Source: Amphiscolops sp. MND2022
Taxonomy: Eukaryota
NCBI GenBank assembly: GCA_964187785.1
Contig: OZ076409.1
Coordinates: forward strand, 28,956,001 to 29,020,000
Length of the DNA: 64,000 nucleotides
Direction: 5' to 3'
Below are positions 22,189 through 63,966 of the stretch, in pieces (the first letter of the stretch is position 1; each line of letters begins with the position of its first letter). A program made the translations under genes and the position numbers. The notes beneath the pieces were generated by a model that worked only from the letters and a program-made list of their open reading frames with translations, did no database searches and had not been told where the DNA came from.

Positions 22189-22193
22189 TAGGT

Positions 22194-29004: not shown

Positions 29005-29445
29005 GGTACTCCTGACTAAGTGTGGTCCCTGTAAAATTTATGCAGCCGGCCTGAAAACTCCGTGGTCCCTAGCAAATTTGGAATTAAATTAAAAACAAAA
29101 TTAAACGTAAAGCAAACATTACATGTAGTTCAAAACAGCAGAATTCAATTTACTAGCTTTTAGTGCTGTTACAGCCAATATTTATGGAACTTGATTTGAA
29201 GAGGTTAGCATATTTGTTGTATGGCTCGGTCGCTTCGCTCCCTTCGCCAAGTAGCAACATTGAGGCATGGCCATATGGCACCTCGCTCCGCTTCGCTCCT
29301 GCATTTAGGGCACTAGGGGTATGTGAACATAGCTGACTACGGTATAATAATTATTCCGACAAAATATGCAGGGACCACACCTACATTATAGGGACCACAC
29401 TTAGTAAGGAGACATCGCTTGGGACCACACTTAGTCAGGAGTACC
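29005..29445. mobile_element. MITE with GG-starting TIR and 8 bp TSD (Merlin/Mutator-like)
   Basis: Perfect 25 bp TIR ggtactcctgactaagtgtggtccc. TSD ggacaatg at 28997-29004 and 29446-29453. Confidence 0.9.
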
Positions 29446-30305: not shown

Positions 30306-31178
30306 CAGTGTAGGACGTTGAAAATTTGCAAAACGACATTCAATTTTGTTTTGCAAAATCAGTCTGTTTTATCATTCTTGATTCCAATTGGCTAATTCCA
30401 AAAATTAGACAATCAATTTTAACAAAATAGACATTCAAATTTAGCGTACGCTACTATCATGCTACTAGAGAGGTAGAAAGAATGGGGGCTTCCCACGAAG
30501 CAGAATATTCACTAAGCCGAAAAAAACGAAAGTATTCACTAAGCCGAAAAAAACGAAAGTATTCACTAAGCCGAAAAAACGAAAGTATTCACTAAGTCGA
30601 AAATTACGTAGCACTGTAGAATTCTCTGCAATCTAATTGGCTGACGCGGGCGGACCGGAACGAAGTCCGTTCAGAAATTTTTTTAAAATGAAATTTTCAA
30701 TTTCCCCCAGTCAGCTATGTTCACATACTCCTAGTGCCCTAAATGCAGGAGCGAAGCGAAGCGGAGCGACGTGCCATGTGGCCATGCCTCAATGTTGCTA
30801 CCTAGCGAAGGCAGCGAAGCGACCGAGCCATACAACAAATATTCTAACCTATTCAAATAAATCAAGTTCCAAACATATTGGCTGTAACAGTACACATTTC
30901 ATTGTATTTTTCGGCTTAGTGAATACTTTCAATTTTTCGGCTTAGTGAATATTCTGCTTCGTGACACCCCACCGAAAGAATGAAGACTCTGCTTCGCATA
31001 GCTGCGCAAACTTTCAATCTTAATTACCAGCGGTATGCGAGCAGTGGTCTGCTAGGGGATTACTAAAATTGAATGTCGATTTGGGAAATTTGAATGTCTA
31101 TTTAGAAAATTTAATCTTTCATCTGATTGGTTCGGGAAATTTGAATGTCGTTTTGCAAATTTTCAGCGTCCTACACTG
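30306..31178. mobile_element. Tc1/mariner-type MITE (TA TSD), host of a nested MITE
   Basis: TA|cagtgtaggacgttgaaaatttgcaaaacgacattcaa versus its inverse at 31141-31178|TA (1 mismatch). Confidence 0.85.
30484..30973. mobile_element. MITE with GG-starting TIR, 8 bp TSD and ~24 bp subterminal tandem repeats
   Basis: TIR core cacgaagcagaatattcactaagccgaaaaa at both ends. TSD gaaagaat at 30476-30483 and 30974-30981. Confidence 0.88.
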
Positions 31179-35709: not shown

Positions 35710-38395
35710 TTATTATTATTATGAATTCTGTGGTTTTCACCACACGGGGTTTAACCCCTTCCAGATATATCAAGTGGCACACAGCATAATGTATTATTGT
35801 ACAAATTTCAGTGCAAATTTTGAATTTTCAGTTAGAAGTTATCAAAGTCCAACTCTGTTTTGGAAGCAGTAGTCTGTTACAGAAGTACATTAGAGTCTCG
35901 TGTAGAAAAGTCAGGGTTTCAGTTGTTTATATATATATATATATATTACTCTAACGTACAAATAATCAAATTTGTAAGTAAGATGCCACTATTTGCTGGC
36001 CATGATATAAAAATAAAGATTAATTTATTCAGCGCTTAAAAAGTAGTGGTTGTAAGTTTTTTTGAACCCCGAGTTTCGTTCTGTTCCTCTGTTCTCTTAG
36101 GGCTCGAGCTCACACCCCAGCCCGGTGAAACTCAGTCCGTTCCCTCCACAAAATGCTGGGGCCCTCTGATGAAAAAAACATGTTTCAATTTGAACGGACT
36201 TTTTTTACGTTCCGAGGCGGACTTCTGTTTTTTTTTCTTGTTGATCTTGCATATCGCATCATCATCAGCAATGTCATCAGTTCCATCGTTTCACTTCATG
36301 AAGTGCGGATCTATTTTGCTTTGTCCAGGCGTCGCGAAAGCTCCACAAAACATAGAGTTGATTTCCAGTTCTCCCACTTACAGCTTTCTAACAATTCCTC
36401 CAATTTCTTGGGTGGTTCAAGGCGTCGTAGATTTGAATAAAAAGGACATCGGTAAAGGAAATGAGCAGTTGTTTCTTCTGCAATCAAACATGTGCACACT
36501 GGTGAGAAACATCTTCCTATCAAAAATTGGAAATAACCTAGGTTGCTATGCTCTGTCAGTAGTTGCACCATTCGTCTAGTATGAGCTTTACTCAAATGCT
36601 TGGGTAACACTCCTTCAATTTTGGCTTTTAATCCAGTGTTTCCAGACAGATTTAATATTCTAATTCGGTCGTTCCATCTTCTGTAAGTTAACTCCTTCAT
36701 TGATTCCTGACTGTAATACAGGGGTGAGCCAAACCTTCTGCTATCGGCAATTAACTTCTTGATGATGGGTGAGTTGCTGTTATTAAAAAGGCAGTAAACG
36801 CGATCGTCTTGGTTTTGCTGGCTCACTTTGATTGCGAATTTTGCCCCATGTGTTGCAATTTGATTATCAATGGGCACGTTATTTCCGATCAATTCTAATA
36901 GCTCCTTCTTCGGATTGTATGTCGAACAGGTTGAAAGGTTTACAATTTCTGCCCAGTTGGGAGTTTCGGAACTTTTCACGGTTACCCCAAATGAAGGCCA
37001 AATATGTCCATTTAGGAACAACTATGGATTGACATAGAGTCTTGAAAGTGTTGGGGCTAATCGATTTGTTGCTCAAATAACTTCTTTTGATGCTTTCGAA
37101 TGTTTGTATTGCTCCGTTGGTTGCTGCAGTGTATTGCTGGCCAAAGTTCAGTTTGTCATCGATGATGACTCCAAGTACCTTCATTGCATCGGTGATTTTT
37201 ATTTGGTGTCCTTCAAAGATCAGGCTGGCTTGGGTTTCAATTATGGTTGTCTTTTTGTCAAGAATCATTGCTGTAGTTTTGGTCAGAGACACTTGCATTC
37301 TCCAGTTATTCAGCCATGTAGCCAGAACTTCGATGTTTCCTTGCATTACTTCCAGAGACTGTGCGGCGTTGAGTCCAGATGAGAGGATGGTGAGATCGTC
37401 AGCGTATTTAAAACTTCGCCCATCTATGTTGCAGCACATATCAAATACAAAAATATTAAAAAGTACAGGAGAGAGAACTGACCCTTGTGGTGACCAATGA
37501 CTGATTTGAACTCAGCACTTCTGAAGCCTTCAATTCGAATGTAGAAAGTACGTTCTTCTAAGAAATTTTTTATTGGACTCCAAATGTTACCATTAATTCC
37601 GAGATAATGCATCTTCAAGAGCAATCCATGGATCCACACACTGTCGAATGCTTTCTCTAAATGCTTTCAGTTGTTTAATAGTCTGCAATTTTTTGTCACA
37701 CAGTCGCATTTCATTCTCCAAGTGCAAGTGTTCAGCTCATCAAAGGTGTCGTGAAAATCACGCCACATCCAGTAGAGTAGCTTCGGTTTTAGAGTATCAT
37801 ATTCACGAATGTCAATTGAAGATGGTAATTGCATGGCTAGACGTTTTGCTCGGAACCAAAAATTTTGTTCTGCAGTAGCGGGTTGAGGCCTGCTTTCTTG
37901 CAAGAAATGATAGGGTTCTAGTGGCGTGTGATAAGTATATTCGTTGTTCATTGAATAGTTAAATTTGTCAGAGAAATCATTGTTGATATTTTGTGTCAGT
38001 ATTTTCGAGAGATACAGGAGATCCAGCAGTTGAAAGTAAAACGTGACGGGTAGTATATTTAGTTTGATAAGGCAGTCCTTATAGCTACTATCTGGAATAA
38101 TCCATTTGCAGACTTTCTTCTGTACTCTTTCGAGGATTCTCATGCTTTCCACGTTCAATGGTAGTACGATCGATGAGTGTGTGAGAATTGGCAAGATCAT
38201 GCTCTTGTATAAATTCAGTTTGTGTTGGCTACTTAGGCTGAGAGAGTTTCTCTTGATCATGTAAAAGACTCTGTATGCCTTTTCGGTTCTCGACTTGAAA
38301 TGTGGAACCCAACTCCGGGATTTCGTGATAATTACACCAAGGTCTATCTCTTGTTCCTTCGATTGTAATGGAGCTCTGCCAAAAGTCAGCTGATC
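35710..38395 (-). mobile_element. 5'-truncated CR1-group LINE (38395-37665, then 3' UTR 35929-35710 with (TAA)n tail)
   Basis: DLGVII, LNLYKSMILPIL and LERVQKKVCKWI motifs; stop at 37667. The sequence resumes after the inner LINE and ends in an (ATT)n run at ~35710-35722. Confidence 0.8.
35930..37664 (-). mobile_element. 5'-truncated LINE (I/Jockey-group-like RT plus C-terminal CCHC), (TA)n tail, 13 bp TSD
   Basis: LEKAFDSVW, KYADDLTI, KVLGVIIDDKLNF and QLLTEH...CTC...ETTAHFLYRCP motifs. (TA)n at ~35929-35946. TSD tttcagttgttta at 35917-35929 and 37665-37677. Confidence 0.9.
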
Positions 38396-39714: not shown

Positions 39715-40571
39715 TTTTTAGTCCGGCGCTTTTATAAATAAAAGAGCCCGACTATTACAGTCACTCGTTTTTTTAAGACAGACTCGAAGCGACGAACGTC
39801 AATTAACTACAGAACGGTAATTTACTACTAAACTACTGGACCGGTGAATGAACGGGGAGCGTATTTAAGATGGTGCAAAGGGTCCCCCTTTCAGTTACTC
39901 CATTCTTATCGTAAGATATAAAACCGGACGAGACTATAGGGTCCCCCCTTTGAGTTTTTCCGGCACTATGCGACTTTTCGAATTTTTTTTGTCTCCAAAG
40001 GGTCCCCCTTCAAGTTTTTTGATATTTTACAGCAAACTGAAGTTTGGAAAAGCTCAAAGGGTCTCCCCTTCCAAGTTTATCGGCACTCTGAGACTGGCTC
40101 AAAATTGTTGTTTTTCGATTTTTTTTCGAAATTTTTAATGTCTCGAAAGGGTCCTCCTTCAATTTTTTAAATATTTTGCAACATAATAGATATTTCACAA
40201 TCCCAAAGGGTCCCCAATTTTAGATTTTTCGGCACTATGAGACTGCTCAAAATTGTTATTTTTCGTCTAATTTTTCTCAGTATATATCTACCAATATTTT
40301 TTTCCAAAACTATCCGAAACTTGGACGTAATATCCTAAGTAAAGCGCTATATCCGGATTTTTGACGTTATATCCGAAATATATTCCGTTTTACCAAGGAG
40401 AGGCGGAGCTCCCATTTGGGCCAGCACGCTATATCCGAAGTTTGAGACGTTACACCCCGCACCATATTGGATTTTCAAAAAACCCAAAGGGTCCCCCCTT
40501 TTACAATTTCAAAACGTTTGGGCATTTTGAGCCTTAGATATGGTGCCGACTTTAGACGTTCCCGTCTTGTT
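39715..40571 (+). mobile_element. Complete HINE-like copy, head-to-tail with the preceding copy
   Basis: tttttagtccggcgc...gagcccgacta start, gggtcccc tandem core, gtgccgactttagacgttcccgtcttgtt end. Confidence 0.85.
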
Positions 40572-41134
40572 AATTTTTAGGACTAATTGTTTCAAAACTA
40601 TTGCATCTGGAGCTTCTAACCTCAATACCACGGTTGACATGTTTTGGAACAATGTTGTAAAGTGTTTCGACAAGAAATGGCGTTATTGATGCTAGGCACG
40701 CTGTGATCATCCTCGGATTTGGTTCATCTCCAAGGCAGTAGTCGCGAGAATAGTTTTTTGAATTGAAATACAATAATTTTAATTCATTTGGTCATACATA
40801 TTACTAACACGAATAGTATAGAAACAGAAATTTCTGACCAAATAAAACCTACCAAGGGCCAATGCCTGTTTGAAAGAGCTGGGGCGGGTTTTCGAGATAT
40901 GTATGGAATGATTTGATCTCACAGCCGGTAAAATGAGTCGTTTTTCTACTTTCAAATGTTCAACTGGTGTTCTCGTTCCGGTGCGATCCATGTTTTGAAA
41001 ATACACCCACCGTTTAGAAAATCCTAAAATCGTCCTGTGAAGGAGGCCTTCCTTAAAGCAGCTTGCTAGGTCACCGTTCTCACAATCGAAAATAACAAAA
41101 GACCAGAGTTTGAAGAAATTAAGCATTTCAAACA

Positions 41135-41684
41135 AACAAGCCGAGAACGGCCAAAGTCGGCGCTATATCGAAGGCTCAAAATTGTAAAAGGGGGGACCCT
41201 TCGGGCTTTGTGAAACTCCAGCTGGTTGCAAAATATGAAAAAAAATTGAAGGGGAGCCCTTTGGGGACTTGAAAAAATTCCCCAGAAAAAAATTTGAAAA
41301 TGAGATTTTTGAACAGTGTCACAGTGCAGAAAAATGTGAAAGGGGGGACCCTTTGGGTTTTTTTGACATCCATTGTGTTGCAAAATGTCGAAACAAAAGA
41401 AGGACGGACCCTTTGGTGCAATCCAAAAGTTTCAAAAGTTGCATAATGCGGAAAAAAATGTGGGGCTATGGTGGGATCCTTAGTGTGATTTCGAGGTTCT
41501 GGACGTCTGTTTTGTTTCTTCTTTTCGTTTTGGACGCGCTTTCGAGGTTGGAGTTGTTGAGGTTCGAAGTTGTTGAGGTTTGACGTTGTCGAACAAATGA
41601 ACAAAAAAGTGGACCTTACTCGTCTAAAAAAACTACGCACTGTAAGAGTCGGGCACATTGTCTACTAAAATGCGCCGACTAAAA
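41135..41684 (-). mobile_element. Complete HINE-like copy (inverted)
   Basis: Minus strand reads ttttagtcggcgc ... gatatagcgccgactttggccgttctcggcttgtt. Confidence 0.85.
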
Positions 41685-41859
41685 TTATACGACGCTGCAA
41701 CACCCGTTGCCGATTTTTGCATCGAAACTTTCCTGGTCATTATTAAGGGTTAGATAGGAAACTCGTTTTCATAACTTATTATCGTTTTCATAACAAAATG
41801 TCTCGAACCAATGGAATGAGGTTTACTGTTGAATATCCACAAAAAAAGAAAATATTCTC

Positions 41860-43400
41860 TTGATTTTTATGGATAGCACTGTAGGCTTGACAGCTTTACA
41901 AATACTAGGTCCACAAGTTCCTATCTTCAACAGGTGGCAACCAGTTCACAGAGCTGTAAGAATGTATAAAATATGGCGTTTTTTGACTGAAACTCGTATC
42001 TCACATCCTTGTTTGTTGATCAAGCGCTTCTGCGCAACTGATGCCCCCTTTACTGGTCCACTAGTCTTGGCCGACTTTACTAGGCCGACGGGGAGCATAG
42101 ATATAGACACCTTAGAACTCTGACGCAGGATTTCTTGCATCAGGTGGCGGAAGTGGATGGAGTGTGATCCATGCATCAACTATCATACTCCATAGTTCAG
42201 AGAAAGTACCTGTATAATCATTGCTAAACATCTTCAATTAAAAAAAATAGATGTTCGCAACGCAAAGGCTACATTATTGAGTTGGAGAAATGACTAGCAA
42301 CAGGGTGAAAAGCTGATTTAGCTAAAATTGAATGAGTAAATAACATATTACGATTGAGCAAGCAATCAGTATCGATAAAAATTGACAAGGGGACTGATTT
42401 TCAAGGTTGAATTAAATGAAAAGGGTGAGGTCGCGACTTGAACAACAACCCCTAAAAAAACTAGGCTCAGTATGAAAATCTTTGTCTTCCCTTCTCGTGT
42501 TTTATTGAGAACTATTTTTCTGAATGTGACCACGACACGGATCAAGTGCTCATTTGCGATTTTATAGCATTTGTAGAAGTCATGGCATAGAGCATTGCGC
42601 TTTTCGGTATCGAGCTTGGAAATTTATTGCTGGTCAAGTAGTTCGCGTCAGAAAAGCAGCAGATTGAACAAAGCCGAGATTCTTTTAGAAATGCAAGCTT
42701 CGTGATGTAGCCTTCTGAACCACATGACGGAAGTTGTACCCTTTCCGGACAGTTGCTTAGCTATATCGTTCAGTGGTTCAACGGAGTGATCCTCTCGGAT
42801 GCATGGAGCTTATATGTACAGAGGATTTTCCGTACTCAATCATCAAGTCTTCCTCTTGATAAGTAAATACTTTTGTTGAGCCTCCTCTGTAGAATCATGA
42901 TGTTGCAGTGACGAATAGTAAGCACATTCAAATAGAAGGACTCATGTTGGATGATGGGTCCGACATGAAGCCTATAGTATATTATTAGTTGGTCCTTTGT
43001 GAGCGAATGGCATGTGTGAATTTGCAACATAGCAGTTTTGATTTCATTTTAGCGATATGATCTTTGAATCATTAATGGTGACCTCCAAATACTTAATTTT
43101 CGTGTTAATATTCAACCCGAAATCTCTCATCTGACAGTTTACCGTGTTTTTGCTGAAACTGCTGATTTATCTAGGTTACGTTTCAGTTCATTGCCTCTCA
43201 TCCAATCATCAACATTGTCCAGTATGTCAGCCAACGATTGCATACTGGTGATCTCATTGTAAAAAATCGTATCGTCGGCAAAAAAAGTTATACAAGCCTT
43301 GATTTGTCGTGGGAGATCGGTATTGTACAACAAAATAAAGGCCCGAGTAGTGATCCTTGAAGTACACCGCATTTCACTGGGTGGCAAGATGATCTGTAGC
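41860..43400 (-). mobile_element. 5'-truncated degenerate CR1/L2-group LINE
   Basis: FILLYNTDLP..IKACITFFADDT...WMRGNELK.NLDKS RT motifs. The 3' region 41900-42170 is similar to 23140-23430. Confidence 0.75.
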
Positions 43401-43489: not shown

Positions 43490-44059
43490 TTTTTAGTCGG
43501 CGCATTTTATCAAAATGAGCCCGACTATTACAGTGGCAAGTTTTTTTTTCGTCAGACCACAGAATGTATGCGTAGTGGACACTTTTTACAGAACTACTAA
43601 AAGTACGGAACCGGCAAGCGGAATCACATCTGAGTTACTGCAAAGGGTCCCCCCTTTCGTGTACTCAATTTTTAACGTAAGATACAAAACCACTACAGGG
43701 TCCCCCCTTTGAATTTTTTTCGGCACTGTGCGACTTTTTTTCGAATTTTCTTTTGTCGCCAAACGGTCCCCACTTCAAGTTTTTTGATATTTTGCAGCAA
43801 ACTGAAGTTTCAAAAAGCCCAAAGGGTCCCCCCTTTCTAGTTTTCGGCACTGTGAGACTGTTTCAAATTTTCGTTTTTTCGAAAGTTTTTTTCAAAAAAA
43901 AATTCCGAATTTTTTAATTGTCTCCTTCAATTTTTTCGATATTTTGCAACAGACTGGATTTTCAAAAAGCTGAAAGGGTCCCCCTTTTTACAAGTTTAAA
44001 AACTTAGCGCTTTTTTGAGCCTGAGATATAGCGCCGACTTTAGACGTTCCCGTCTTGTT
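43490..44059 (+). mobile_element. Complete HINE-like copy
   Basis: tttttagtcggcgc...gagcccgacta start and gcgccgactttagacgttcccgtcttgtt end. Confidence 0.85.
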
Positions 44060-44914
44060 ATATGCCTGTATGTTCATATTTTCTTCTTTATATTATTGTA
44101 CAGTTCCAAAATATTCTGTACGGCAAAGAAGTTTTAAAGAACAATAAATACAAAATAAATTAGCATTTGTCTCGGAACAGCAATGTCAGAATCGGGAAAA
44201 TGAGTCGATTACCACCAATAACTGCTTTTAGTCGGTCCGGAATGCTGTCCTGTAGTTTTTGTGTACTGTAGTGTACTTCAAATCAAAAAAGGGCCAGTGC
44301 TGAATACGGTGGGAGCTTTGCGCTAACCTTGTTAGCGCCTGCGTTTTCATGATTCCCGGACGATAGAAACAAGGCTTCCATTTATTCTGTATACAATCAC
44401 GCATTCTCGACATCTCATTGGACTGAGCAAGTAATACTGAGCCCCTGAGGGATCATTTTTAGTCGCAACATTTAGGTAACTAAAATTGCGAGACTATTGC
44501 AGTCACAGTTTTCTTCAAGACAACCACGAATGTGACGGAACGATACGAACGTGACGAAACGGATAGGCTTCTAGACGCAGAAGTAAAAATTGCTAACAGA
44601 GATTAACGGGTCCTCCTTTTGAATTTTCATTATTTTTATATCACCTATCAATCAAAAGTGCAAAAGGTGGCGCCTCTTCAGTATTTTGACATCTTGTCGG
44701 TACTGTTAGAGTTTTGCTGTGAACTTTTTAATTTCACATGAGGGTCCTCGTTTGTTTTTTTTGTTATTTTCAGTCAGAAAAGAGCCCTTTTTAACCCAAA
44801 AGGTGTTTTTCGGCAATTTGAGATTGAAATGATTTTGAAATACTTTTGAAGCATAATTGAAATATTTGATCGTTTCCAACTACTGTTCTTTGAAGAGCTC
44901 TCTTATTTGTTTAG

Positions 44915-45661: not shown

Positions 45662-46125
45662 TTTTGAACTTTTGACCGGTAACGCCCTTTCGATTTCGAA
45701 ATAAGTTGAAAATTTTGAATCTGACATTGATTTTTTTCGGGAAATCTAATAGTATGAGCTGTTTAGATTTCAGATTTACCTATGTTGCTTTTTAATATCA
45801 CTACTGTACCAAAAAAAGTTAACTTGAAGGGTCATAATTGAAACGTGGCGGTGAAAATTTTCCATTTGGTCACAAGTCAAACTCGTCTAACTTTAAATGC
45901 TCTGTACTTTCAAGTAAAAACATCTGATATTGCTTCTCCCAAATTCAAACTAGATTGTCACTTTTTTGTATACAACTAAAAGGTTTGGATCCCACCAATG
46001 AATCAAAATTATGCCGATTTTGAAACGGTCCTAACTTCGGGAATACAGTTTGAAACACTCTGTATTATTTTCTGTTTTTACTGCGTTCAAGTGTGAACGA
46101 TCAAGAGGTGAAAGTGTGTTTGCAG

Positions 46126-46291
46126 GGTGATCGCTGGTGGACGTTCTCTATCGGTCTACTACTGGTGACGCTATCGCCCGTAGAAGGCTCCCTGAGGGTA
46201 ACTGCAATCAATAGTATCACCATTTCTGTCGCTCTCGTTCTCTTCTCTCATGTCATTGGCTATTGGATTGATCTCAGCCCACGTCTGCATG
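46126..46291 (+). CDS. SLC40A1: Ferroportin exon (GDR motif, TM1-TM2)
   Basis: Boundaries tgcag|GGT...CATG|gtatgg. Translates GDRWWTFSIGLLLVTL...IGYWIDLSPRLH. Confidence 0.93.
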
Positions 46292-46836
46292 GTATGGCTT
46301 TCTTGTCTCCATCTTGTACCATTCCTATCATTATCACGTATTTCTGGATTTTTGTATCTCCTTTACTTAGTGAGTTACTCTTTGATGTTATTCAGAGTTA
46401 TTGGGATCTTTTTTTTTAATAGGCTGTATTTCCTCAATTTTTCATACATTGCTTTCAAATCATCCTTCTGAAATAGCTGAAGAGAATCGGAATTAATTTT
46501 GTTGAAATTACAAATAGCATTGAAAGACTAAGTTTCAGCTTGGTAATAGCATTTTAATTCAGCCATCTGTCAATGAAAAAATAGATGCTCTAGAGACTGG
46601 GAATTCGGGCAGAATGCTCCCAACGCCTGTTTCAATGCCTTATCGCGATGATGAGATATGATATGATTTCTGTTGGGTCTTTCAGTTGGAATGTCACTGA
46701 AACGTATCTGCCTTTCTGATCGAAGCTTCGGATGTTCTCTCCAAAGTTTATCTTCGATTCTCATATTTTTGATACATTTAACATATCAGACGAATATCAA
46801 CACGCACCGAATGTGAAAAAAGTTGTTTGGTTTCAG

Positions 46837-47076
46837 TGATCCGAGTGTCGGTGTTATTCCAGAATGCGTGTGTGGTGGTTACCAACGTGCTGGTATATTT
46901 GGTGTTCGTTAACTACCACGCGCATCAGAGGATGAATGAGCCGGCGGTGGTACTGTACCTGGTCGTCATCATCTCCTTCTCCGTGCTCGGCAGACTGGCC
47001 AGTGTCGCCAACAAGATCGCTGTCACGAAGGACTGGATTGTCGTCATCGCACATGCCGGACATGTCGCTCTCACTG
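46837..47076 (+). CDS. SLC40A1: Ferroportin exon (TM3-TM4)
   Basis: Boundaries tttcag|TG...ACTG|gttagt. Translates VIRVSVLFQNACVV...LASVANKIAVTKDWIVVIA. Phase 1 at both ends. Confidence 0.93.
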
Positions 47077-47429
47077 GTTAGTAGTTTCCCAGGGAGAACA
47101 TTTCGATTCTCAAATTGGTTTCCTCTAAGTTTTGGCAAAGCAAGGGTGATACTCCGTTGTCTAACGACACCAAAAGTTCCGTATCATGGATATATATGAA
47201 ATCCATGGTTTCTACGTTTTTGTGTTTTCGCATTTTCGAAGCATTAGATTTGAAAAATTTGAAAGCGGCTTTAGTTGCAGCGTTGAGCAAATTTTTTGTT
47301 TTGAATTTTTGGAACAAAATTTGCGTAGTAAGATCGTTCCCGAGCAAAGATTCTTGCGGCGAATGATACACTGAAGCGAAGTCTAGCTTATTGTGGTAAA
47401 TTCTTGGTTTCAACTTTCACCAGACGCCG

Positions 47430-47586
47430 GTATCGCGCGGGTCCGTGAATTTTGAATGTTCTACATCTTATTTAAAGTTTTGTTCATTAAATAAGAAGCA
47501 TTTTCCCACCAAAATTTATGGATTTTTGAAAGAAATTGAATAATAAAACGTTTAATTTATTTTTTAAAAACTGGACCTTGGAGAGG
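47430..47586 (+). repeat. Dispersed repeat, second copy at ~55965-56125
   Basis: Shared gaatttt.aatgttctacatcttatttaa.gttttgt...agaagcat...caccaaaattta.ggattttt sequence. Confidence 0.75.
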
Positions 47587-47810
47587 CGTGAACAGAGATA
47601 AGCTTTTGTCTTAAAAGTGATTCACAATAGTAATGAGGAGGGTTTAAATTGGGATTAATATGAAAGGTTTCAAGATATTGTGATATCCTTTATTTAGTGT
47701 TTCTTTGTGGTGATCAGTACAATTCTTAATAATCATTCTTTATCATGTCAATTTCTTTCCGTCTTCCGACAGAGCTACAGTGCCTTCTCTTGATCTTGAT
47801 TTTTGTTCAG

Positions 47811-48014
47811 ATGCGAATGCGACGATGCGTAGAATAGACTTAGTGTGCAACATTGTGGCCCCCGTGTGCATAGGATTCCTCATGACTTGGGCCAGTCAAC
47901 AGTTCGCAGCTCTTTTCGTTGCAATCTGGAACGGGGTATCTGCCCTTGTGGAGTACACTCTTCTAGTCAGCATCTACACAGCCGAACCCATGCTCAGTGT
48001 CAAAGACGACGCAA
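47811..48014 (+). CDS. SLC40A1: Ferroportin exon (TM5-TM6)
   Basis: Acceptor gttcag|AT. Translates DANATMRRIDLVCNIVAP...IWNGVSALVEY...PMLSVKDD. The donor is either a|gttagc (48014) or the GC donor c|gcaagt (48010). Confidence 0.9.
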
Positions 48015-48049
48015 GTTAGCGACCAACCATTGTCAAATATGCAAAAGTA

Positions 48050-48514
48050 CAGTACTGTGATTAAGAAAACGTCCCCCGAGCGATTTTAGGCTCGATTTTC
48101 TCGAAATTGGTTGAGAATTTTGAAAAACATCAGATAAAAGTTTCTTAGAATTTCATCTAGTTTATATTAGTGTTTTTTAAATTTTTCTGGGACAAAAATT
48201 GAGAAAGTTACAAATGGCTGATTTTGAGCAAATTTGGTACTTTTTTCCGTTCTTATAATTTTTGACCGTTTTATCCACAGTTTTTTCGGCAAGTTTTATG
48301 CTCAAATAACTCCCTCAAATCTACTGAATAAATTGATGTATTTTGATTTCAAAATAGATCAACCGTTTCCGAATTATCAGGCTCAAAAGGTAAAATTTCC
48401 TAAATTTACGTGAAATTCACTTGATGCGCCAATCAGAATTGAAAGTGAGAGCAAATAAACAATTGTGATTGGCTGAAAACGTCATACGGGGACGATTTCT
48501 TAATCACAGTACTG
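48050..48514. mobile_element. Tc1/mariner-type MITE (TA TSD), 465 bp
   Basis: TA|cagtactgtgattaagaaaacgtcccc ... ggggacgatttcttaatcacagtactg|TA. Confidence 0.92.
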
Positions 48515-48685
48515 TACACTGGTTCAGTAATAAATGCATCATGAAAGATGCCGAAGACAGCTACTATTACTCTGGAAAAGAATCTGTGGCAAGCTTACCA
48601 TTCTTATTAAGTACACACGACTCGAGTCTTACGTAATTGAGTCCGTGGTGGGTACACTTTTTGGATGATCGTTTATGACAGCACT

Positions 48686-48927
48686 TGTTGTTGTTTGAAG
48701 AGTTGTTTTTATGAAATGATTGAATTAAATTTGATAATGACAAGACAGTTTTTATTCAGTGAGAAGAGTAGAACAAATTTGACTCTTGAAATAAAGTGGG
48801 AAAGTGTGAATAAACGTGGCAGAAAATCAACAGTTCAAACTTTTTCATACGTAATTTCATGTGTCGAATTCTGATTGGTTAATTCAAAAGTTAGCATCAC
48901 AAACGAATATTTTCAGAAGCATCAACA
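48686..48927 (-). repeat. 3' LTR
   Basis: Direct repeat of 53356-53597 with 3 substitutions counted by eye. Confidence 0.97.
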
Positions 48928-49322
48928 TATGTCGCCCGGGTTGAAGTCCTTCAATAAAAAGAGTTCCATTTTCATATACTTCATGGCACATTTTGTCGAT
49001 AACGACAGCTGATCAGCAATCATTTGTAGCTGCAAGAACGAAGTATATGCTATAAGTGCATCTTGTGATAAGTTGAAATGGTATATGAAGTAGTCAGTAG
49101 TCCAGTAGAGGGCATGCATTTCTGATCATAAGATAACAACGACTTGAATTAGGATAATGAATCGATAATTCCGATAAACTAGAGACTAATAGGGAGCGAA
49201 TAGGCTATTTCCCGCGGTCCGTATCCCAAACGGGTCATGAGGGGATACTTTTTGCGGCTGTGGGTTGACAGAAAAAACAAGATATAACGAAAATAACCAA
49301 AGTATTCTGTCACTTTCTTCCC

Positions 49323-52084
49323 TCAAGGACCACTGGGGATTCTGTCCACGATGGATTCAGCTAGCGGTAGCTTTCTGAGTTTAATTACAGGTCGATTGAA
49401 GGTTTTCTTTGACGTTTTGATCTCTGCTACCCTCGGAATTTCATCATTTCCTTTAAATAGTTTCGAGACTCTGGCAAGTTTCCACACAAGTGGGGCTTCG
49501 TTATCTTCAGCAACCAGTACAAGGTCGCCCACGTTTATACAAGGTCCAGTGCGAAACCATTTCTTCCGTATTTGAAGTTCCACAAGGTAGTCTCTGCTCC
49601 AAGACTTCCAGAAATCTTGTTGAATTCGTTGAAGGAGTTTTAGTCTCTGTCCTGCGGGTACATCTATGTCTTCTCTGGCTTTTGGCCTTGGAAGTTTCCT
49701 TCAGCTCACGTTTCTCTGGTAACACAGATGAGGATTGTACATCTAGTTGAGGCCAATAAGATTTTGGGTGTGGTAGCCATTCAGGGCCAGACCACCAAAG
49801 GCGAGAGTTAACGGTATCGTCAACTGAGATTCCCCTTGAGGCCAGATCCGCTGGGTTGTCATTTGTTGGAACATGATTCCAGCTATCTCTTTTGATAATT
49901 TTTTGTATGTAGGAAACTCTGTTCGCTACAAATGTGGTCCAAGTTCGCGGGAGTTGCGATAACCACTGGAGAAAGATGGTGGAGTCTGTCCATGCGTGGA
50001 AAGATTGTTTAAGACCAGTTGAAGAGTTGACATGGTAGCTTCAAGCAGTTTTGCGGCTAAGTGTGCACCACAAAGCTCAAGACGAGGCATTGAGACAACC
50101 TTCACTGGGGCAACCTTCGTTTTAGAAGTGATCAAATGCGAGCTCACATTTCCAAAGACATCAGTGGTACGCGCATAGATGACGGCAGCATATGCCTTCT
50201 CTGAGGCATCGCAGAAAACATGGAGTTGAAAGTCTTGAATTGCATTTTTTACAATTGCACGCGGCATTGTGATTTGAGACAACGTTTCCAGCTCAGAATA
50301 GTGCTGTAAAAACTGCTGCTTGATCGGTTCGGGAACGAGCTCGTCCCACTCGACTCCAGTCAACCAAATTTGTTGAAGTAGGATTTTGAACACGATGATG
50401 ATGGGAGACAGCCAACCCATTGGATCGTACAAGTTTGCTGTAGCTGACAATAGATTGCGTTTGGTGAGTACTGTCACAGCAGGTAGGTCCGTTTTGAAGC
50501 ATATGATGTCCAGGTTTGGTTTCCAAATGATTCCTAGAGCCTTCATTTTGTAGTCGTCATTTCACATTCGTTAGCTGTTTCTCGCAGCTCATCGGGTAGT
50601 TCCTTGATCAATGTAGAGCAGCTTGATACCCATTTACGCAGTGGGAATCCATATTTGAGGAGTTCGGAATGAAGGTCTGCAATCAATTTCCGTGCATCTT
50701 CAACAGAATTGGCTCCGCCAAAAAAATCATCCACATAGAAGGAGTGCTCCAAATGATGTTGGACATTTGGGTTGCAAGTTCGCTTGGAAACTTCTTTCAG
50801 ACATCTTGTGGAATGAAAGGATGATGATGCAATGCCGTATGTCACTCTTGTCATGCGAAAAATACGCACAGGTATGTCCTTTCTTTCACGCCAAATGATC
50901 CGATGAAAATCCTTGTCTGGTACATCTAAAGCAACCTGTCTGTACATTTTCTCTATATCAGCTGACAAAGCAACAGGTACCACTCGAAAGCGCATAATGA
51001 TGGAGTAAAGATCGTCCTGTACTGTTGGACCAACCATGAGAATGTCATTTAAAGACTTTCCAGTGGAAGTCTTTGCAGATCCATCGAAGACAACACGAAG
51101 TTTTGTAGTTTCTGAATCGTCTTTAAATACGCAATGGTGGGGTAGGTAGAAGCTTTTGCTGTCCTCGCTGCGTGTCTCGTTCGCTGGAACTTCCTCCATA
51201 TGCCCAGTTTCCACAAATTGATCGATGAATGACTTGTAGCGCGATTTGAGCTCCGGATCTGAGTCTAGACGTTTTTCAAGTGAGTTGAACCTTCTGTTTG
51301 CTTGATCTAAACTTTCTCCCAACTGACAATCTTGCTTGAAGGGTAATTTTACAGTGAAACGGTTGTCTTGATATTTTGTCGTGTTAACAAAATGTTGCTC
51401 ACAGGCTTCTTCTTCCTTGGAGAACTGACGACCCTTTGGAATTTCCTCCAACTCCCAAAATTGCTTTAAATCAAAGTCGACTGATGATTGGAAGGAACTA
51501 ACGCTTGTCACTGATTTGCCAGGTTTTGATCCACAGATTGTCCACCCGAATGCTGTTTTGCGTGCGTAGATACCATCACACACTTTGGTTCTTTCGTTTC
51601 CAATGACTTGTTCATAAAGATCAATTCCGATGATGATATCAATATTAGAAGGTTTTGCAAAGTTTGGATCAGAAAGCTTGATATTTGGAAACTTGATTTG
51701 CTCTGGTACTTTCAGCGGACTGGATGGAATAGCAGCTGTCAGTCGTGGTAAAATGAATGCTGAAACATCGTAGGAGATGGAATTTTCATCAACAATTGTC
51801 AGATCAGTCTTTCCACGGGTAGTTGATTTTGATGAACATCCAATGCCATTGATAATTATCTCGGATTTCAGTCGTTTCAGCTGCAAACGTTGTACACATT
51901 CCTCGCTAATAAATGTCAATTCCGATCCACTATCCAGAAGTGCTCGACACTTGTGAGCGATACCAGTTTTCGACATGACTGACACTTCCACTGTAGGTAG
52001 GATGTGTTTCGCAGAAAATATCCCCTCGTGACCCAAATGCGAATTGGCCACGGGGACCTGTTCAGTTTGCTCACCAGGGGTATG
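49323..52084 (-). pseudogene. BEL/Pao pol: protease, RT, RNase H and integrase C-terminal tail; integrase core absent
   Basis: ALLDSGSELTFI; KLRVVFDGS, ADIEKMYRQV, FYVDD; LHVFCDASEKAYAAVIY, PRLELCGA; WWSGPEWL; then FWKSWSRDYL..LQ.RKKW...VGDLVLV. Frameshifts near 50545, 49990 and 49690. Confidence 0.93.
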
Positions 52085-53280
52085 GAGCAGGGTATGGTGC
52101 AGTTTTTGACACTCTGACACCTTGACTTGGATTTGCAGGCCTTAGAATTGTGACCTGGTCGTAAACAATTGAAACACAACTTCTTGATTTTGATAAATTT
52201 CTGTTTGTCTTCATAACTCATAATCTTGAATTTATCGCACTGGTGTAGTTTGTGTCCCTCGGAGCAGTTGATGCAAGACACGCTAGCAGTAGAGCCTTGG
52301 TAACCTTGAACTTTGTTTGATTCTTGATTTTTCTTGACTAACTTGCTTGATGAGGCTGAGGCTTCAAGTGCTCGGGCTCTATCTTCAAGAAACCGCTTTA
52401 GGCTGTCCATGCTCTGAGCATCATCGCCCTTGCTGTGAAGTTCCCATTGTCTGCGGCTCTGGGTGTCCAACTTTTTTGCTATGATGTGAACCCAGATGAA
52501 ATCTGATGGTCCGACATCTAATCCCAATCCTTGTAGGGCCATCGTGTTTTCCATGAAATTGCTAATCAATTTCCTCAGCTGATCAGGCGATTCTTCTTTG
52601 ATCGGACGAAAATCAAAGATGGCTTCTAGATGAGTGTGAATTATCATTCGTTTGTTCGCATACCTGTCTTGGAGAAGTTTTTTGGCAACTTCGTAATTCG
52701 CACTGGAAGTAGGTAAATGCGATAGAAGACGAGCTGGCTCATCTTTCAGCGAAGACTCAAGATAGTGGAGTTTCTGAATGTTGCTAAGCGTACGATTGCT
52801 GTCCACAGTGCTGTTGAATGTGTCTGAGAATGGTGTCCACTCAGAGTATTTCCCAGTAAATGTAGGAAGACTGAGTTTCGGCAGCTTTAATCCAGAAGTG
52901 GATGTTTGTTGATTATCTTCAGTCACAGTTTGTGGTTGTCTCGGGGCGGCGTCAGCAGCCTGTTCGATCCGTTCTTCGGCCATTTCAAGCGCTTTGATCG
53001 TTGTTTTGATCCTGAGATCATTGTCATCAATTCTAGACCTTTCAGTTTCGATCTCTTCTGAGATTTTGTCACTTTCAGTCAATTCGTTGGTGATGCGTTC
53101 GTTTAATTCTTCAATCTTGGACACTTGTTCCCTGCACCTTTCAAGAGAACACTTGATCTTTGAGATTTCCAGCAGCGTTAGTGTGCTAGGTTCCTTCTCA
53201 AGGATTTCCTTCACTGAGTTTTCTGTCCTGGTAATTGTTCCGAGATGGCCAGATCTCGTTCTTTTCAAAGCTTCAGCCAT
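52085..53280 (-). pseudogene. BEL/Pao gag (DUF1759-like region and three Cys/His knuckles)
   Basis: LKLPKLSLPTFTG..SEW..F.DTF, CINCSEGHKLHQC, CFNCLRPGHNSKAC and C..CQKLHHTLLH. A 1 nt frameshift lies near 52113. Confidence 0.93.
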
Positions 53281-53344
53281 TTCAAATTTAATAATCCTTC
53301 TGTTCAATGTTGAATTTCCAAGTTTCGAAATTCCTGGGTAAGCG

Positions 53345-53352
53345 CGGCACCA
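53345..53352 (-). promoter_or_regulatory. Primer-binding site
   Basis: TGGTGCCG 3 nt inside the 5' LTR, complementary to the ...CGGCACCA 3' end typical of eukaryotic tRNA-His or tRNA-Phe. Confidence 0.8.
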
Positions 53353-53355
53353 AAA

Positions 53356-53597
53356 TGTTGTTGTTTGAAGAGTTGTTTTTATGAAATGATTGAATTAAAT
53401 TTGATAATGACAAGACAGTTTTTATTCAGTGAGAAGAGTAGAACGAACTTGACTCTTGAAATAAAGTGGGAAAGTGTGAATAAACGTGGCAGAAAATCAA
53501 CAGTTCAAACTTATTCATACGTAATTTCATGTGTCGAATTCTGATTGGTTAATTCAAAAGTTAGCATCACAAACGAATATTTTCAGAAGCATCAACA
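53356..53597 (-). repeat. 5' LTR
   Basis: Followed on the minus strand by tttTGGTGCCG (primer-binding site). Confidence 0.97.
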
Positions 53598-53842: not shown

Positions 53843-54151
53843 GTAAGTTGATGAAGTGACTGGTTTTATCTTTAATAACAAAGACCTGAAATAAAGCGCT
53901 TGATGAATTTTTTCAATATCTTGAAAATGTGTGTTGATAAACTGTGATGCAGTGTTCAGTTGGTGCTCTTCTGAAAAATAGCTCACTATTGCTGTGACTA
54001 GTTTTTTCCGGCATTGAGATTTTTTCCGAAAAACACTTCCCGTTCCAAAATTACCACTTTTCAATATTTTGTATTTTTGGAACCATATATTTTTGGTCCG
54101 CATTTTTGATTACTTCGACACTGTGTGTTTATGAAATTTTTCAAACAGGTC

Positions 54152-54305
54152 AGTAGTAATATGAGAGCCGATCAAACAGCGGGTAGAGGAACCCATGTAT
54201 TAAGATAGGTCTTAGATCCAAGCGGGGTAGGGTCCTCCGAGTAGTGGGTTGATATAGAGGTGTGCTCTCATATCCCCCTGTCTGATCGGCTCTCATATTA
54301 CTACT
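54152..54305. mobile_element. 154 bp MITE with AGTAGT termini and 6 bp TSD (Maverick/Polinton-type ends)
   Basis: 28 bp TIR agtagtaatatgagagccgatca(a/g)acag (27/28 identical). TSD caggtc at 54146-54151 and 54306-54311. Confidence 0.85.
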
Positions 54306-54549
54306 CAGGTCCCGAATCAATTTGAAGGACTTTGGACCACTTCCTGAGCCTCCTCCAGCGGGCGCCGACTTGTTTTTGATTTGGAAATTTCTGCGACAAG
54401 GATGTAATTTGTCACGTCATATTTCTCGAAAGGGCGTATTCAATTTGATTTTTCAAAAAACAGAGCTTAAACTGAATCCAAAATTGATTCAAATTTGTCT
54501 AATATTGCATTTCATTTTCCAATAATGTATATACGTCTATAAAAATTAG

Positions 54550-55831: not shown

Positions 55832-57070
55832 ATATTTATGAGCGTTCTGTGGGCTTCTTGGCTCTAAGAAATCATTTACAGTCTGTTTTACATATACGCA
55901 CCCTGTACTACATACCAGGAAATCGTGCAAAGGGAAGTGAAATTTTATAATCCGGAGTTTTCGGATCGTGCGCATCCATGAATTTTAAATGTTCTACATC
56001 TTATTTAATGTTTTGTCTACTATATTAGAAGCATCTCCGCACCAAAATTTAGGGATTTTTAAAAGGAATTGAATTACAAAATGTAATATCTTTTTTTTAA
56101 AAAAAAAAAACAGGACATTGGGGAGATAATTTCGAATTTTAAAGTTTATTGCATGCTTTTATTGCATTGCTTACAACTTGAAGTTCTGATATCAGGGTTT
56201 GGTACTAGCTTGCTCAGTGTCTTGTCCGATTCATTTTAGACATCCAATTGCTGCCTAACTGCAATGGTCTTTCATCTGAGTAGAATACTTCAGTAGAAAA
56301 TTCCAGCTCACCTTCTTGTGAAGTGGGCTTGTGTTAGCGTGTTTATGTTGGGTTAGTGTCTGTTGGCTCAATGTCTCACTGATGATGATGTAATCAAATC
56401 AAATGTACTACTATTGATGGCTTCGGGAATGCTTGAAAATCATGGAAATTGTAACTGGTATCATCGCAATTGGGTTAAGCTGCAATTCCTATGCAACCGC
56501 TTGCTTTCGATCACAACGTATAAAATAACACACAAAATGTTCAAGGGACTTTTTAGCCCCGTTTGCGTAGAAAACGGAATTTGTTTTCGTAAAACTAGGG
56601 AACTAGCACGAGATGCAGAAAGCTGTGAGCAAAAATCCGATGTGATATGTGCATATGGGAAAAGAAATTTACTGACTGAGCTGCTTTTTTCTCAAAATTT
56701 GCCATGTTTCAATGTCGTAGCCATATTGAAGGGGTTCGCACTTAGAATTCAACTGACATAAACTTGTTTCGTGTGATATGAATTTGTCGAGTTTTTGGAC
56801 TCTTTTGGTTGACCACAACAAAACCAAAAAAGTCCAAAAAATTCGAAAATTTTTCCGCTTTTAAGCGTTTTATGTATTTTTGTACAGTTTTAAATTGTTT
56901 TTGTGGGTTAGAAAATCCACAAAGTTTCAAGTCGAAAGAACCGGCAATACAAAATAGTTTTTTGAAAATCCGAAAATTTGAGTGAAAAGTGTTTCAGAAT
57001 GACCAATTTAAACCAAAAGAACCAGGTATCAAGGACACTTTTTCGAAGAGAAATCCAAACTGTTATGTTG

Positions 57071-57430
57071 AAGTGCCTCAAATTAACCACAAAAACATGG
57101 AATTTTTTCAAGTTTTCTAATTTTTAGGTGTTGGAAAAATTTTCGACTACTACAATCTTACTTTTTTCTCCCGACGTTTCAATGAAAATTTTAACTTTCT
57201 CAAAAACTGTCCATACGATTTTTATACAAGACGCCCGCTGAGCAGCGAGATATTTTCGGCCCCCGGGCGTCTAGTATAAAAATCATATGGACTGTTTTTG
57301 AGAAAGTTAAAACTTTCATTGAAACGTCGGGAGAAAAGTACGATTGTAGAAGTAGTCGAAAATTTTTCCAACACCTAAAAATTAGAAAACTTGAAAAAAT
57401 TCCATGTTTTGTGGTTAATTTGAGGCACTT
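57071..57430. repeat. Foldback inverted repeat (~165 bp arms, ~26 bp spacer)
   Basis: 57071-57237 (aagtgcctcaaattaaccac...agacgcccg) is the reverse complement of 57264-57430 with few differences. Confidence 0.95.
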
Positions 57431-57439
57431 TTCTTCAGA

Positions 57440-60400
57440 TCATGGTCAATTTGAGGCATTTTTCTTTTATAAATTGAACTTATTTCAAGACGAAAGCTCA
57501 CCGAAACAACCAGTTGGCCCATGTTTTAGGCCTTTAAACGTTCTAGTTGACGAAGTCCATTGATATTTTGACAAAAATTGTGCAAAAAGATTGAAATTAG
57601 GATAATTTTGAAATTTTGTCTGTTTCGATGTCAATTCCGGACAGTTTTCGTTTAAAAAACTGCATTTATCACTTTTCTAAGCTTACTGGACAATACAATT
57701 TTTCCTTGTTGACCCTTTTCAACGTTCCAGTTGACGAAGTCTGTCAAACATGTGGAAAAAATGCATAAATTTTGGGATTTTTGTCATTTTCGGTGTCAAT
57801 GTGAGATTTTTTCGTTCAGAACCTTGCAATTATCTCTTCATAAAATACCACTGGACGACCAACTTTTCCCTTGTTGACCCTCTAAAAGATTCCAATCCTC
57901 GAAATTTGTCGAAACTTCAACAAAAAAAGCATAAAAACTTTGAAAATTGGAAATTTTTGGGTTTTAGTCATCTTCGGTGTCAATTTGAGGCATTTTTTTA
58001 AAAATGCAATAAACTCTTCGAAAAGACTACTGGACAACCAACCCTTTCCTCGTTGACCCCTTAAAACATTCCAATCCACGAAGTCTGTCAAAAATCAGAC
58101 GAAAATGCGTAAAAACATGGAAAAAATTTTTGGATTTTTGTCAATTTGAGATTTTTTCATTTACCAAACAACAAATATCTTTTCGGAAAAGCCTACTGGA
58201 CAACCAATCTTTTCCTTTTCGAGTCTTTAAATCATTCCAATCCACGAAGTCTGTCGAAACTTTCACCAAAAATACATAAAATCTTCGAAAATTGGAAAAT
58301 TCTAGTATTTTTGCCATTTTCGGTGTCAATGTGGGACATTTTCGTTCAGAACCTTGCAATTATCTCTTCATAAAATACCACTGGACGACCAACTTTTCCC
58401 TTGTTGACCCTCTAAAAGATTCCAATCCTCGAAATTTGTCGAAACTTCAACAAAAAAAGCATAAAAACTTTGAAAATTGGAAAATTTTGGGTTTTTGTCA
58501 TCTTCGCTGTCAATTTGAGGCATTTTTTTAAAAAATGCAATAATCTCTTCGAAAAGACTACTGGACAACCAACCCTTTCCTCGTTGACCCCTTAAAACAT
58601 TCCAATCCACGAAGTCTGTCAAAAATTAGACGAAAATGCGTAAAAACATGGAAAAAATGGAAAATTTTTGGTTTTTTGTCAATTTGAGGTTTTTTCATTC
58701 ACAAAACAGCAAATATCTTTTCGGAAAAGCCTACTGGACAACCAATCTTTTCCTTTTCGAGTCTTTAAATCATTCCAATCCACGAAGTCTGTCGAAACTT
58801 TCACCAAAAATACATAAAATCTTCGAAAATTGGAAAATTCTAGTATTTTCGCCATTTTCGGTGTCAATGTGGGACATTTTCGTTCAGAACCTTGCAATTA
58901 TCTCTTCATAAAATACCACTGGACGACCAACTTTTCCCTTGTTGACCCTCTAAAAGATTCCAATCCTCGAAATTTGTCGAAACTTCAACAAAAAAAGCAT
59001 AAAAACTTTGAAAATTGGAAAATTTTGGGTTTTTGTCATCTTCGCTGTCAATTTGAGGCATTTTTTTTAAAAATGCAATAATCTCTTCGAAAAGACTACT
59101 GGACAACCAACCCTTTCCTCGTTGACCCCTTAAAACATTCCAATCCACGAAGTCTGTCAAAAATTAGACGAAAATGCGTAAAAACATGGAAAAAATGGAA
59201 AATTTTTGGTTTTTTGTCAATTTGAGATTTTTTCATTCACAAAACAGCAAATATCTTTTCGGAAAAGCCTACTGGACAACCAATCTTTTCCTTTTCGAGT
59301 CTTTAAATCATTCCAATCCACGAAGTCTGTCGAAACTTTCACCAAAAATACATAAAATCTTCGAAAATTGGAAAATTTTAATATTTTTGCCATTTTCGGT
59401 GTCAATGTGAGACATTTTCACAATGAAAACTGCAACGAACTCTTCGGAAAAGTCTACTGGACGACACATTCTTTCCTTGTTGACCCTTTTGAACGTTGTA
59501 GTTGACGAAGTCTGTCGAAAATTTGAAAGAATATGCATAAAAACTTTGAAAATTGGAAAATTTTGGGTTTTTGTCATCTTCGCTGTCAATTTAGGCATTT
59601 TTTTAAAAAATGCAATAAACTCTTCGAAAAGACTACTGGACAACCAACCCTTTCCTCGTTGACCCCTTAAAACATTCCAATCCACGAAGTCTGTCGAAAA
59701 TTAGACGAAAATGCGTAAAAAGATGGAAAAAATGGAAAATTTTTGGTTTTTTGTCAATTTGAGATTTTTTCATTTACAAAACAGCAAATATCTTTTCGGA
59801 AAAGCCTACTGGACAACCAATCTTTTCCTTTTCGAGTCTTTAAATCATTCCAATCCACGAAGTCTTTCGAAACTTTCACCAAAAATACATAAAATCTTCA
59901 AAAATTGGAAAATTTTAATATTTTTGCCATTTTCGGTGTCAATGTGAGACATTTTCGTTCAGAAGATGGCAATTATCTGTTCATAAAATACCACTGGATG
60001 ACCAACTTTTCCTTTGTTGACCCTTTAAAATCTTCCAATCCTCGAAATTTGTCGAAACTTCAACAAAAAAAGCATAAAAACTTTGAAAATTGGAAAATTT
60101 TGGGTTTTTGTCATCTTCGGTGTCAATTTGAGACATTTTCACTATGAAAACTGCAACGAACTCTTCGGAAAAGTCTACTGGACGACACATTCTTTCCTTG
60201 TTGACCCTTTTGAACGTTGCAGTTGACGAACTCTGTCGAAAATTTGGAAGAATATGCATAAAAACTTTGAAAATTGGAATTTTTTTGGGTTTTTGTCATC
60301 TTCGGTGTCAATTTGAGGCATTTTTTAAAAATGCAATAAACTCTTCGAAAAGACTACTGGTCAACCAACCCTTTCCTCGTTGACCCTTTAAATCATTTCA

Positions 60401-61150
60401 ATCCACGAAGTCTGTCGAAACTTTCACCAAAAATACATAAAATCTTCGAAAATTGGAAAATTTTAATATTTTTGTCATTTTCGGTGTCAATGTGAGACAT
60501 TTTCGTTCAGAACATTGCAATTATCTGTTCATAAAATACCACTGGACGACCAACTTTTCCCTTGTTGACCCTTGAAAAGATTCCAATCCTCGAAATTCGT
60601 CGAAACCTCAACAAAAAAGCATAAAAACTTTGAAAATTGGAAATTTTTGGGTTTTTGTCATCTTCGGTGTCAATTTGAGGCATTTTTTTAAAATGCAATA
60701 AACTCTTCGAAAAGACTACTGGACAACCAACCCTCTCCTGATTGACCCCTTAAAGCATTCCAATCCACGAAGTCTTTCAAAAGATTGACGAAAAATGCGT
60801 AAAACTATTGGAAAAATGGAAATTTTGGGATTTTTATTTTCGGTGTCAATTAGATTTTTTCATTCAAAAAACAGCAATTTTCTTTTCGGAAAAGCATGCT
60901 GGACAACGAATTAGTGCCATGTTGAGCGTTTTCTTTATTGTAATCCACGAAGTCTATCGAAAATTTGACAAATATTGCATGAAAACGTTAAAAGTCGGGA
61001 AAATTTTGGTTTGTCTTTTTTGGGTTTTTCTTTCCATAAAAACTGCATTTATCTCTTCATAAACGACTACTGGACAACCAATTTTTGCGTTGTTGAACTT
61101 TTTCATCATTCGAATACACGACATCTATCGAAAATTTGACAAAAATTGCA
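57440..61150 (+). repeat. Satellite of 173-185 bp monomers with a 538 bp trimer higher-order repeat
   Basis: ctggac anchors at 58381, 58561, 58734 and 58919 (180+173+185 = 538). The ORF track repeats at 58141/58679/59217. Confidence 0.95.
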
Positions 61151-61154
61151 TTAA

Positions 61155-63405: not shown

Positions 63406-63966
63406 CGAATCAAAACTGGCGTAAAAATTAGCACATTCGAATTTACAAATGTATAAAAATGGAATCACTAATAAAAATTATATAACTAATTAAGATTCAT
63501 TAGCCAAAATTAGTGTAGGTCGAAATTGCGGAAGAAGTCAACGCTTTCATCAGTTTTGTTTAGACTAGCAGCCTTCTAATGAATTGCACCTGGAATGTGG
63601 TTGGTCTTGCTACAGTTGAACGACTTGGAACAAATTGAACGGTGTCAGAACATTTCGTCCTATGCAATTTCAACCTATACAATTTCAACCGTTGCTGTTT
63701 CAACCGTTGACAATTTCAACCTATTGCATTTTCAACCTAGGTAGTAAGACCAACCACATTCCAGACCATGACCATATTGCTGGTGCAATTCATTAGAAGG
63801 CTGCTAGTCTAAACAAAACTGATGAAAGCGTTGACTTCTTCCGCAATTTCGACCTACACTAATTTTGGCTAATGAATCTTAATTAGTTATATAATTTTTA
63901 TTAGTGATTCCATTTTTATACATTTGTAAATTCGAATGTGCTAATTTTTACGCCAGTTTTGATTCG
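63406..63966. repeat. Inverted duplication with 185 bp apparently identical arms
   Basis: 63406-63590 is the reverse complement of 63782-63966. An additional 23 bp inner pair lies at 63591-63613 and 63741-63763. Confidence 0.95.

Follow-up and report, generated by a model that had tools for sequence, protein, structure and literature searches.

A gene-less insertion of 154 bp was found at positions 54152-54305 of the stretch of DNA analysed here (64 kb, referred to as the window), in which it has exact boundaries and is the sole copy. Its ends, its TIR, its target-site duplication (TSD), the lack of room for coding and its position in an older repeat were directly observed. Polinton-type integration, taking a mobile miniature family and a deletion scar together, is highly probable, which is our judgement and not a computed value. 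As to the nature of the insertion, we lean towards a MITE-sized non-autonomous Polinton/Maverick derivative, likely a member of a miniature family that is moved in trans. The features concerned are as follows, in window coordinates.

53955-54371, forward strand: host repeat in a decayed state, belonging to the HINE/DINE-1-like family of the window
53955-54008: degenerate 5′ subTIR region of the host repeat
54146-54151, forward strand: left TSD, CAGGTC, the first five letters of which are a favoured vertebrate Maverick target
54152-54183, forward strand: left TIR with (AGT)2 at its start, perfect up to 54174 and matching at 30/32 positions up to 54183
54184-54273, no strand assigned: interior of 90 bp with 47% GC versus 33-36% in the flanks, leaving no room for a helper gene
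54264-54273, reverse strand: second copy of the 10-bp motif found at TIR positions 8-17, lying immediately inward of the right TIR but not of the left one
54274-54305, reverse strand: right TIR with (ACT)2 at its finish
54306-54311, forward strand: right TSD, CAGGTC
54362-54371: 3′ subTIR of the host repeat, the 3′ hairpin of which is missing
about 21073-21700, 39715-40580, 41110-41690 (reverse strand) and 43490-44061, plus fragments: copies of the HINE/DINE-1-like family

The first-pass annotation had placed a 154-bp element with an exact 6-bp TSD at this position, and its coordinates proved to be exact. The adjacent bases outside are not complementary to each other, demonstrating that the element ends exactly at AGTAGT and ACTACT. 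Shifting the boundaries gave no longer duplication but only substrings of the CAGGTC repeat or one 4-mer, which sets the TSD length at 6 bp. Both strands open with AGTAGT, and a terminal motif of the type (AGT)2 or (AG)3 is consequently present at both ends. A TIR of 28 bp beginning with AGTAGT had been proposed; the beginning was confirmed, and the length was refined to 23 bp of perfect match, extending to 27/28 and 30/32 before the match stops, the mismatches being located at positions 24 and 29 of the TIR. The spacing of roughly 100 bp between the TIRs also agreed with our measurement of 98 bp for a TIR of 28 bp, or 90 bp for a TIR of 32 bp.

Several chance levels were determined for these characters. 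When the window was shuffled 20 times under a Markov model, perfect inverted repeats reached a length of 15 bp at most. Outside tandem arrays, 7 × 10−4 of the positions have an exact flank repeat of ≥6 bp at the spacing of the element, and the frequency of AGTAGT in the window is 3.4 × 10−4 per site. Perfect inverted pairs with a length of ≥12 bp number 104 in the window, and only two of them are accompanied by a flank repeat of at least 4 bp, namely the 154-bp element and a MITE at 29005-29445. A chance origin of the combination of TIR, TSD and AGTAGT is excluded. The MITE at 29005-29445 has a size of 441 bp and carries a 25-bp perfect TIR starting with GG and an exact 8-bp TSD.

The two ends of the element are asymmetric beyond 32 bp, as the additional 10-bp motif is located inside the right arm only; an equally long match was obtained in 15 out of 2000 interior shuffles. 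Folding of the interior (54184-54273) was compared with shuffled sequences and was not significant for the forward strand (z −0.7) and marginal for the reverse strand (z −1.9, 9/200 shuffles). A central hairpin or snap-back origin was consequently rejected. The whole strand folds as a panhandle with −37.8 kcal/mol solely via the TIR, as any TIR element does. Two further candidates were discarded. The internal AGTAGT at 54240 is at chance level as it appears in 16% of the shuffles, and a solo LTR is not compatible with ends that form a long inverted repeat and are not TG..CA, the ends of LTRs. Dating of the insertion by CpG decay is unusable, since CpG depletion in the window is almost nil (0.93). 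The designation as a MITE holds with respect to the short length, the TIR, the TSD and the absence of coding capacity, while its multi-copy part is unconfirmed with one copy in 64 kb.

The element had further been described as lying inside an older HINE remnant, which our analysis of the flanks supported. The repeat family of the window has T-rich ends and is characterized by subTIRs, an internal inverted repeat on the 5′ side and a hairpin on the 3′ side; subTIRs and a 3′ palindrome in T-rich context were seen in all four copies used (4/4). In the copy at 41.1 kb, the sequence of the 3′ hairpin differs and the pairing is largely kept. Both ends of this family can be aligned with the flanks of the 154-bp element in the correct order, albeit weakly. 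An in-silico empty site, from which the element and one TSD were removed, scored 293 against the four family copies of the window, a value reached by none of 100 shuffles (z 5.1) and by none of 346 other window segments (maximum 274.5). The alignment of the flanks together with an empty-site score exceeding both shuffles and segments argues for insertion into an old HINE-like copy. The left flank (z 5.6) provides most of this support, and the right flank taken by itself is not significant, with 11/100 shuffles as good; the filled site yields a similar z (5.1), and the profile E-values are only 0.01-0.04.

The most common end of vertebrate Mavericks is 5′-(AGT)2//(ACT)2-3′ combined with a TSD of 6 bp (PMC8097293). 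The first-pass annotation had read the ends and the TSD as those of a Polinton/Maverick, and this reading is supported by the published signature, by the match to a CAGGT target, a point absent from that annotation, and by the abundance of Mavericks in a convolutid acoel (PMC6451197). For the target comparison, part 1 of 43 of the supplementary table of PMC8097293, which comprises 1,345 TIR-bearing elements, was used together with term counts. AGTAGT occurs 713 times in this table, compared to the low per-site frequency in the window; the resulting share of 53% is inflated, as the table is restricted to vertebrates and was seeded with these end motifs. Cells starting with CAGGT were found 33 times, 31 of them in TSD columns and corresponding to at least 16 rows, versus approximately 2.6-3.5 cells expected under an assumed background. 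Among 30 of the 33 places, 13 rows showed the identical hexamer on both sides; two rows with inverted flanks are doubtful, and a single orthologous insertion may underlie two Amphiprion rows. The 15 one-change neighbours of CAGGT gave counts of 47, 21, 12, 11, 9, 9, 8, 7, 7, 5, 4, 1, 1, 0 and 0, so that 14 of the 15 are rarer than CAGGT and only CATGT (47) is more common, and six permutations of the same composition used as controls gave 0, 0, 2, 0, 4 and 0. The full hexamer CAGGTC is present in only four cells and never reversed, and two listed Mavericks carry exactly this TSD.

From these counts a rough likelihood ratio of 6-8 was obtained for CAGGT as a Maverick target versus a random target (not versus hAT6), using the 1,345 elements and a background of 0.001-0.0013 that was assumed and not measured. 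CAGGTC thus appears to fit the preference of a Polinton integrase, a modest indication drawn from a vertebrate table, one insertion site and an assumed background. This evidence is independent of the AGTAGT end motif. Vertebrate Maverick TSDs in general look non-random and oriented, with CATGT (47), CAGGT (33) and GAGGT (21) contrasting with 0-4 for the six controls, and with CAGGT in reverse orientation in 10 cells versus 33 forward. The portion of PMC8097293 covered here contains no mention of a Maverick target preference.

Concerning the host lineage, exons of ferroportin (SLC40A1) are present at 46054-48016 on the forward strand, the first of which is 75-76% identical to proteins of the acoels Symsagittifera and Convolutriloba; matches to this exon were obtained for only 3 out of 122 candidates, all of them from these two genera. 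Judging from this one exon, the host is probably a further convolutid or an acoel related to this group. In the annotated assembly of the convolutid acoel Praesagittifera naikaiensis, Mavericks account for 4.5% and hAT elements for 0.9% (PMC6451197), and the Maverick share makes a helper of the Polinton class plausible in the acoel lineage. A Pfam scan of 121 window frames (27 of at least 120 aa and 94 of 75-119 aa outside arrays) revealed no Polinton domain, i.e. no pPolB, integrase, ATPase, protease or capsids. Searches with words of the TIR yielded no match for the 18-mer and an inner-TIR 20-mer in the viral collection, for the 23-mer in the metagenome collection and for the 21-mer in prokaryote genomes. 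Shorter words matched at least 120 loci (viral 14-mer, in 27 of 64 parts), 20 loci (viral 16-mer) and 26 loci (metagenome 17-mer). These 166 loci were rejected as relatives, as they share at most 19 exact bases and at most 24/32 identity and none has an inverted partner, and they look like chance matches. No rve match was detected in four contigs with a short-word TIR match near the contig end, and one scan of the viral collection for Polinton integrase genes found none.

The window contains a number of other repetitive features. A BEL/Pao LTR retrotransposon is located at 48686-53597 on the reverse strand, ending about 550 bp to the left of the 154-bp element; it has 242-bp LTRs of 98.8% identity, a 5-bp TSD and gag-pol distributed over several frames, without a detectable integrase-core domain. 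Long tandem arrays are present at 8970-16333, which shows a strong AT skew of 0.42-0.46, at 57531-61154 and at 1-790, the last with a resemblance of about 66-68% to the array at 57.5-61.1 kb. Elements of the fold-back or long inverted-repeat type were found at 56843-57430, 63406-63966, 29166-30890, 22189-22586 and 48047-48517, one with a perfect arm of 185 bp. Finally, a weakly matching piece of a DDE_3 transposase and several pieces of reverse transcriptases were observed at 18662-18913 (reverse strand), 24484-24969, 36879-37511 and 43142-43399 (reverse strand).

Based on the ends, the TSD and the target, we propose that the retroviral-like integrase of a helper would bind the outer 23-32 bp of the miniature element, the second copy of the 10-bp motif near the right end being a candidate for a further binding site. 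The integrase would then make cuts staggered by 6 bp at a target site of the CA(G/T)GT type, and the gaps would presumably be filled by host repair. In the published Polinton model, which was itself derived from sequence analysis, single-strand excision is followed by folding into a racket, protein-primed copying and insertion by the integrase (PMC4196379). Analogously, though less securely, the excised strand of the 154-bp element might fold into a racket via its TIR, and the protein-primed polymerase of the helper might prime on the AGT repeat. Copying by the polymerase is the weakest step, as the AGT repeat would also persist in an element that uses the integrase only or in a scar. The perfect outer 23 bp and ends that differ beyond 32 bp are as expected of a family selected for its tips; no non-autonomous copies of Polintons turned up in a lizard survey, which counts against a miniature family. 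That the insertion is a true Polinton MITE, i.e. a multi-copy 154-bp satellite copied by the protein-primed polymerase of the helper and inserted by its integrase, is doubtful to us and put forward as a tentative extension. The ideas of a Polinton parasite and of a minimal cis sequence put forward in the first-pass annotation go a step further than the window, in which neither a second copy nor a helper with the same ends was found, and should be understood as inference.

Alternatively, the insertion might be a one-off scar, left after a full-length or long non-autonomous Polinton had inserted and then lost nearly all of its interior in place. The deletion would probably have occurred at the hairpin base of long TIRs, retaining 32 bp of one end and 122 bp of the other, and the element would never have been mobile at 154 bp. 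Such a scar accounts equally well for the ends, the TSD and the target preference, predicts the single copy seen in the 64-kb window and is in line with the abrupt stop of complementarity past 32 bp, and 96% of vertebrate Maverick loci are eroded fossils (PMC8097293). On the other hand, an element of presumably ~15 kb would have needed to have both breakpoints no more than about 120 bp away from its tips. Moreover, the arms of a fresh insertion should be near-identical, whereas two mismatches are present among the 32 positions, both of them at the inner end, with the TSD and the outer 23 bp perfect; this argument is weak, as such a distribution arises in about 8% of cases by chance. Taken together, we regard a scar as unlikely, but serious enough to be kept in mind beside the miniature Polinton.

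Ends of the hAT type typically combine a short TIR with a repeated subterminal motif, as present here, and a further MITE, the one with the 8-bp TSD, is located in the window. The insertion could accordingly be read as an ordinary cut-and-paste MITE with a 6-bp TSD, belonging to hAT6 or an unclassified DDE family, in which the AGTAGT tip is coincidental. Against this reading, one given hexamer is expected at the tip by chance with a frequency of only ~3 × 10−4, the target sequence fits the Maverick preference, and hAT ends usually start with CAG or TAG, so that we consider it quite improbable. It gains from the finding that hAT6 makes 6-bp TSDs (PMC12730594) and from the hAT share of the convolutid acoel genome mentioned above (PMC6451197). 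The list of TSD lengths of rival superfamilies in the first-pass annotation was therefore incomplete, as not only hAT6 but also IS3EU/GingerRoot generate 6-bp TSDs. IS3EU/GingerRoot is nevertheless excluded because these elements end in TA..TA or TG..CA (PMC10045372), whereas the 154-bp element ends in AG..CT.

That the sequence is not an insertion at all but a fold-back formed locally, or a hairpin resembling a microRNA, that is flanked by a repeated hexamer by accident is barely credible: the Rfam microRNA-precursor matches are sub-threshold (33 bits versus a cut-off of 80), reflect any long stem and led us to reject a microRNA identity, while TIR, TSD and end motif each have a low chance level, the GC content jumps at the edges of the element (47% in the element as a whole) and the host repeat continues on both sides.

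The literature examined does not state which portion of the long Polinton TIR is required in cis. A mobile 154-bp family, if it exists, would limit this requirement to about 23-32 bp at each end and, through its numerous insertion sites, reveal the target code of the integrase in an invertebrate; some short repeats in animal libraries that are kept as unclassified with a 6-bp TSD would then be Polinton parasites. If the family were in addition a multi-copy satellite copied by the polymerase, an end of 23-32 bp would represent a complete origin and integration site, and Polintons would breed MITEs like cut-and-paste transposons do. A single scar would merely record a past Polinton insertion, an ordinary event.

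Non-autonomous Polintons as such are already known, and short-named 'Polinton-N' families are contained in Repbase/Dfam. The N in the name Polinton-1N1_DR presumably marks non-autonomy, and we assume that such families are kilobases long. Polinton-1N1_DR of zebrafish is named in PMC9341505, and Tlr1, at times regarded as a Polinton of the non-autonomous kind, carries genes and is assigned to the PLVs (PMC5499653). The 154-bp element would share with both the dependence on a helper and, presumably, Polinton-type ends; it differs from the gene-bearing Tlr1 in being MITE-sized and gene-less. No MITE-sized Polinton was found in the published literature searched; Repbase, Dfam and bioRxiv supplements, which were outside its scope, may hold one. 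With hAT6 the element has the 6-bp TSD and a short TIR in common, the difference being that hAT6 belongs to the hAT transposase family (PMC12730594); this comparison covers TSD and TIR length. The surrounding repeat family resembles HINE/DINE-1 elements, i.e. non-autonomous Helentrons of published anatomy (PMC4067079), as subTIRs and a 3′ palindrome in T-rich context were found in the window family; the host copy at 53955-54371 differs by its decay, having kept subTIR motifs and lost the 3′ hairpin. The likeness to autonomous vertebrate Polintons/Mavericks comprises the (AGT)2//(ACT)2 ends, the 6-bp TSD and the CA(G/T)GT start of the target (PMC8097293). These elements have a size of 12.7-24.6 kb compared to 154 bp (about one hundredth), TIR lengths of 46-1,447 bp among 134 intact vertebrate copies compared to 23-32 bp, and core genes for pPolB, retroviral-like integrase, ATPase, protease and capsids, none of which is present in the 154-bp element. 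With respect to size, genes and TIR length the insertion is thus not an autonomous Polinton, but an element of 154 bp that carries Polinton-like ends.
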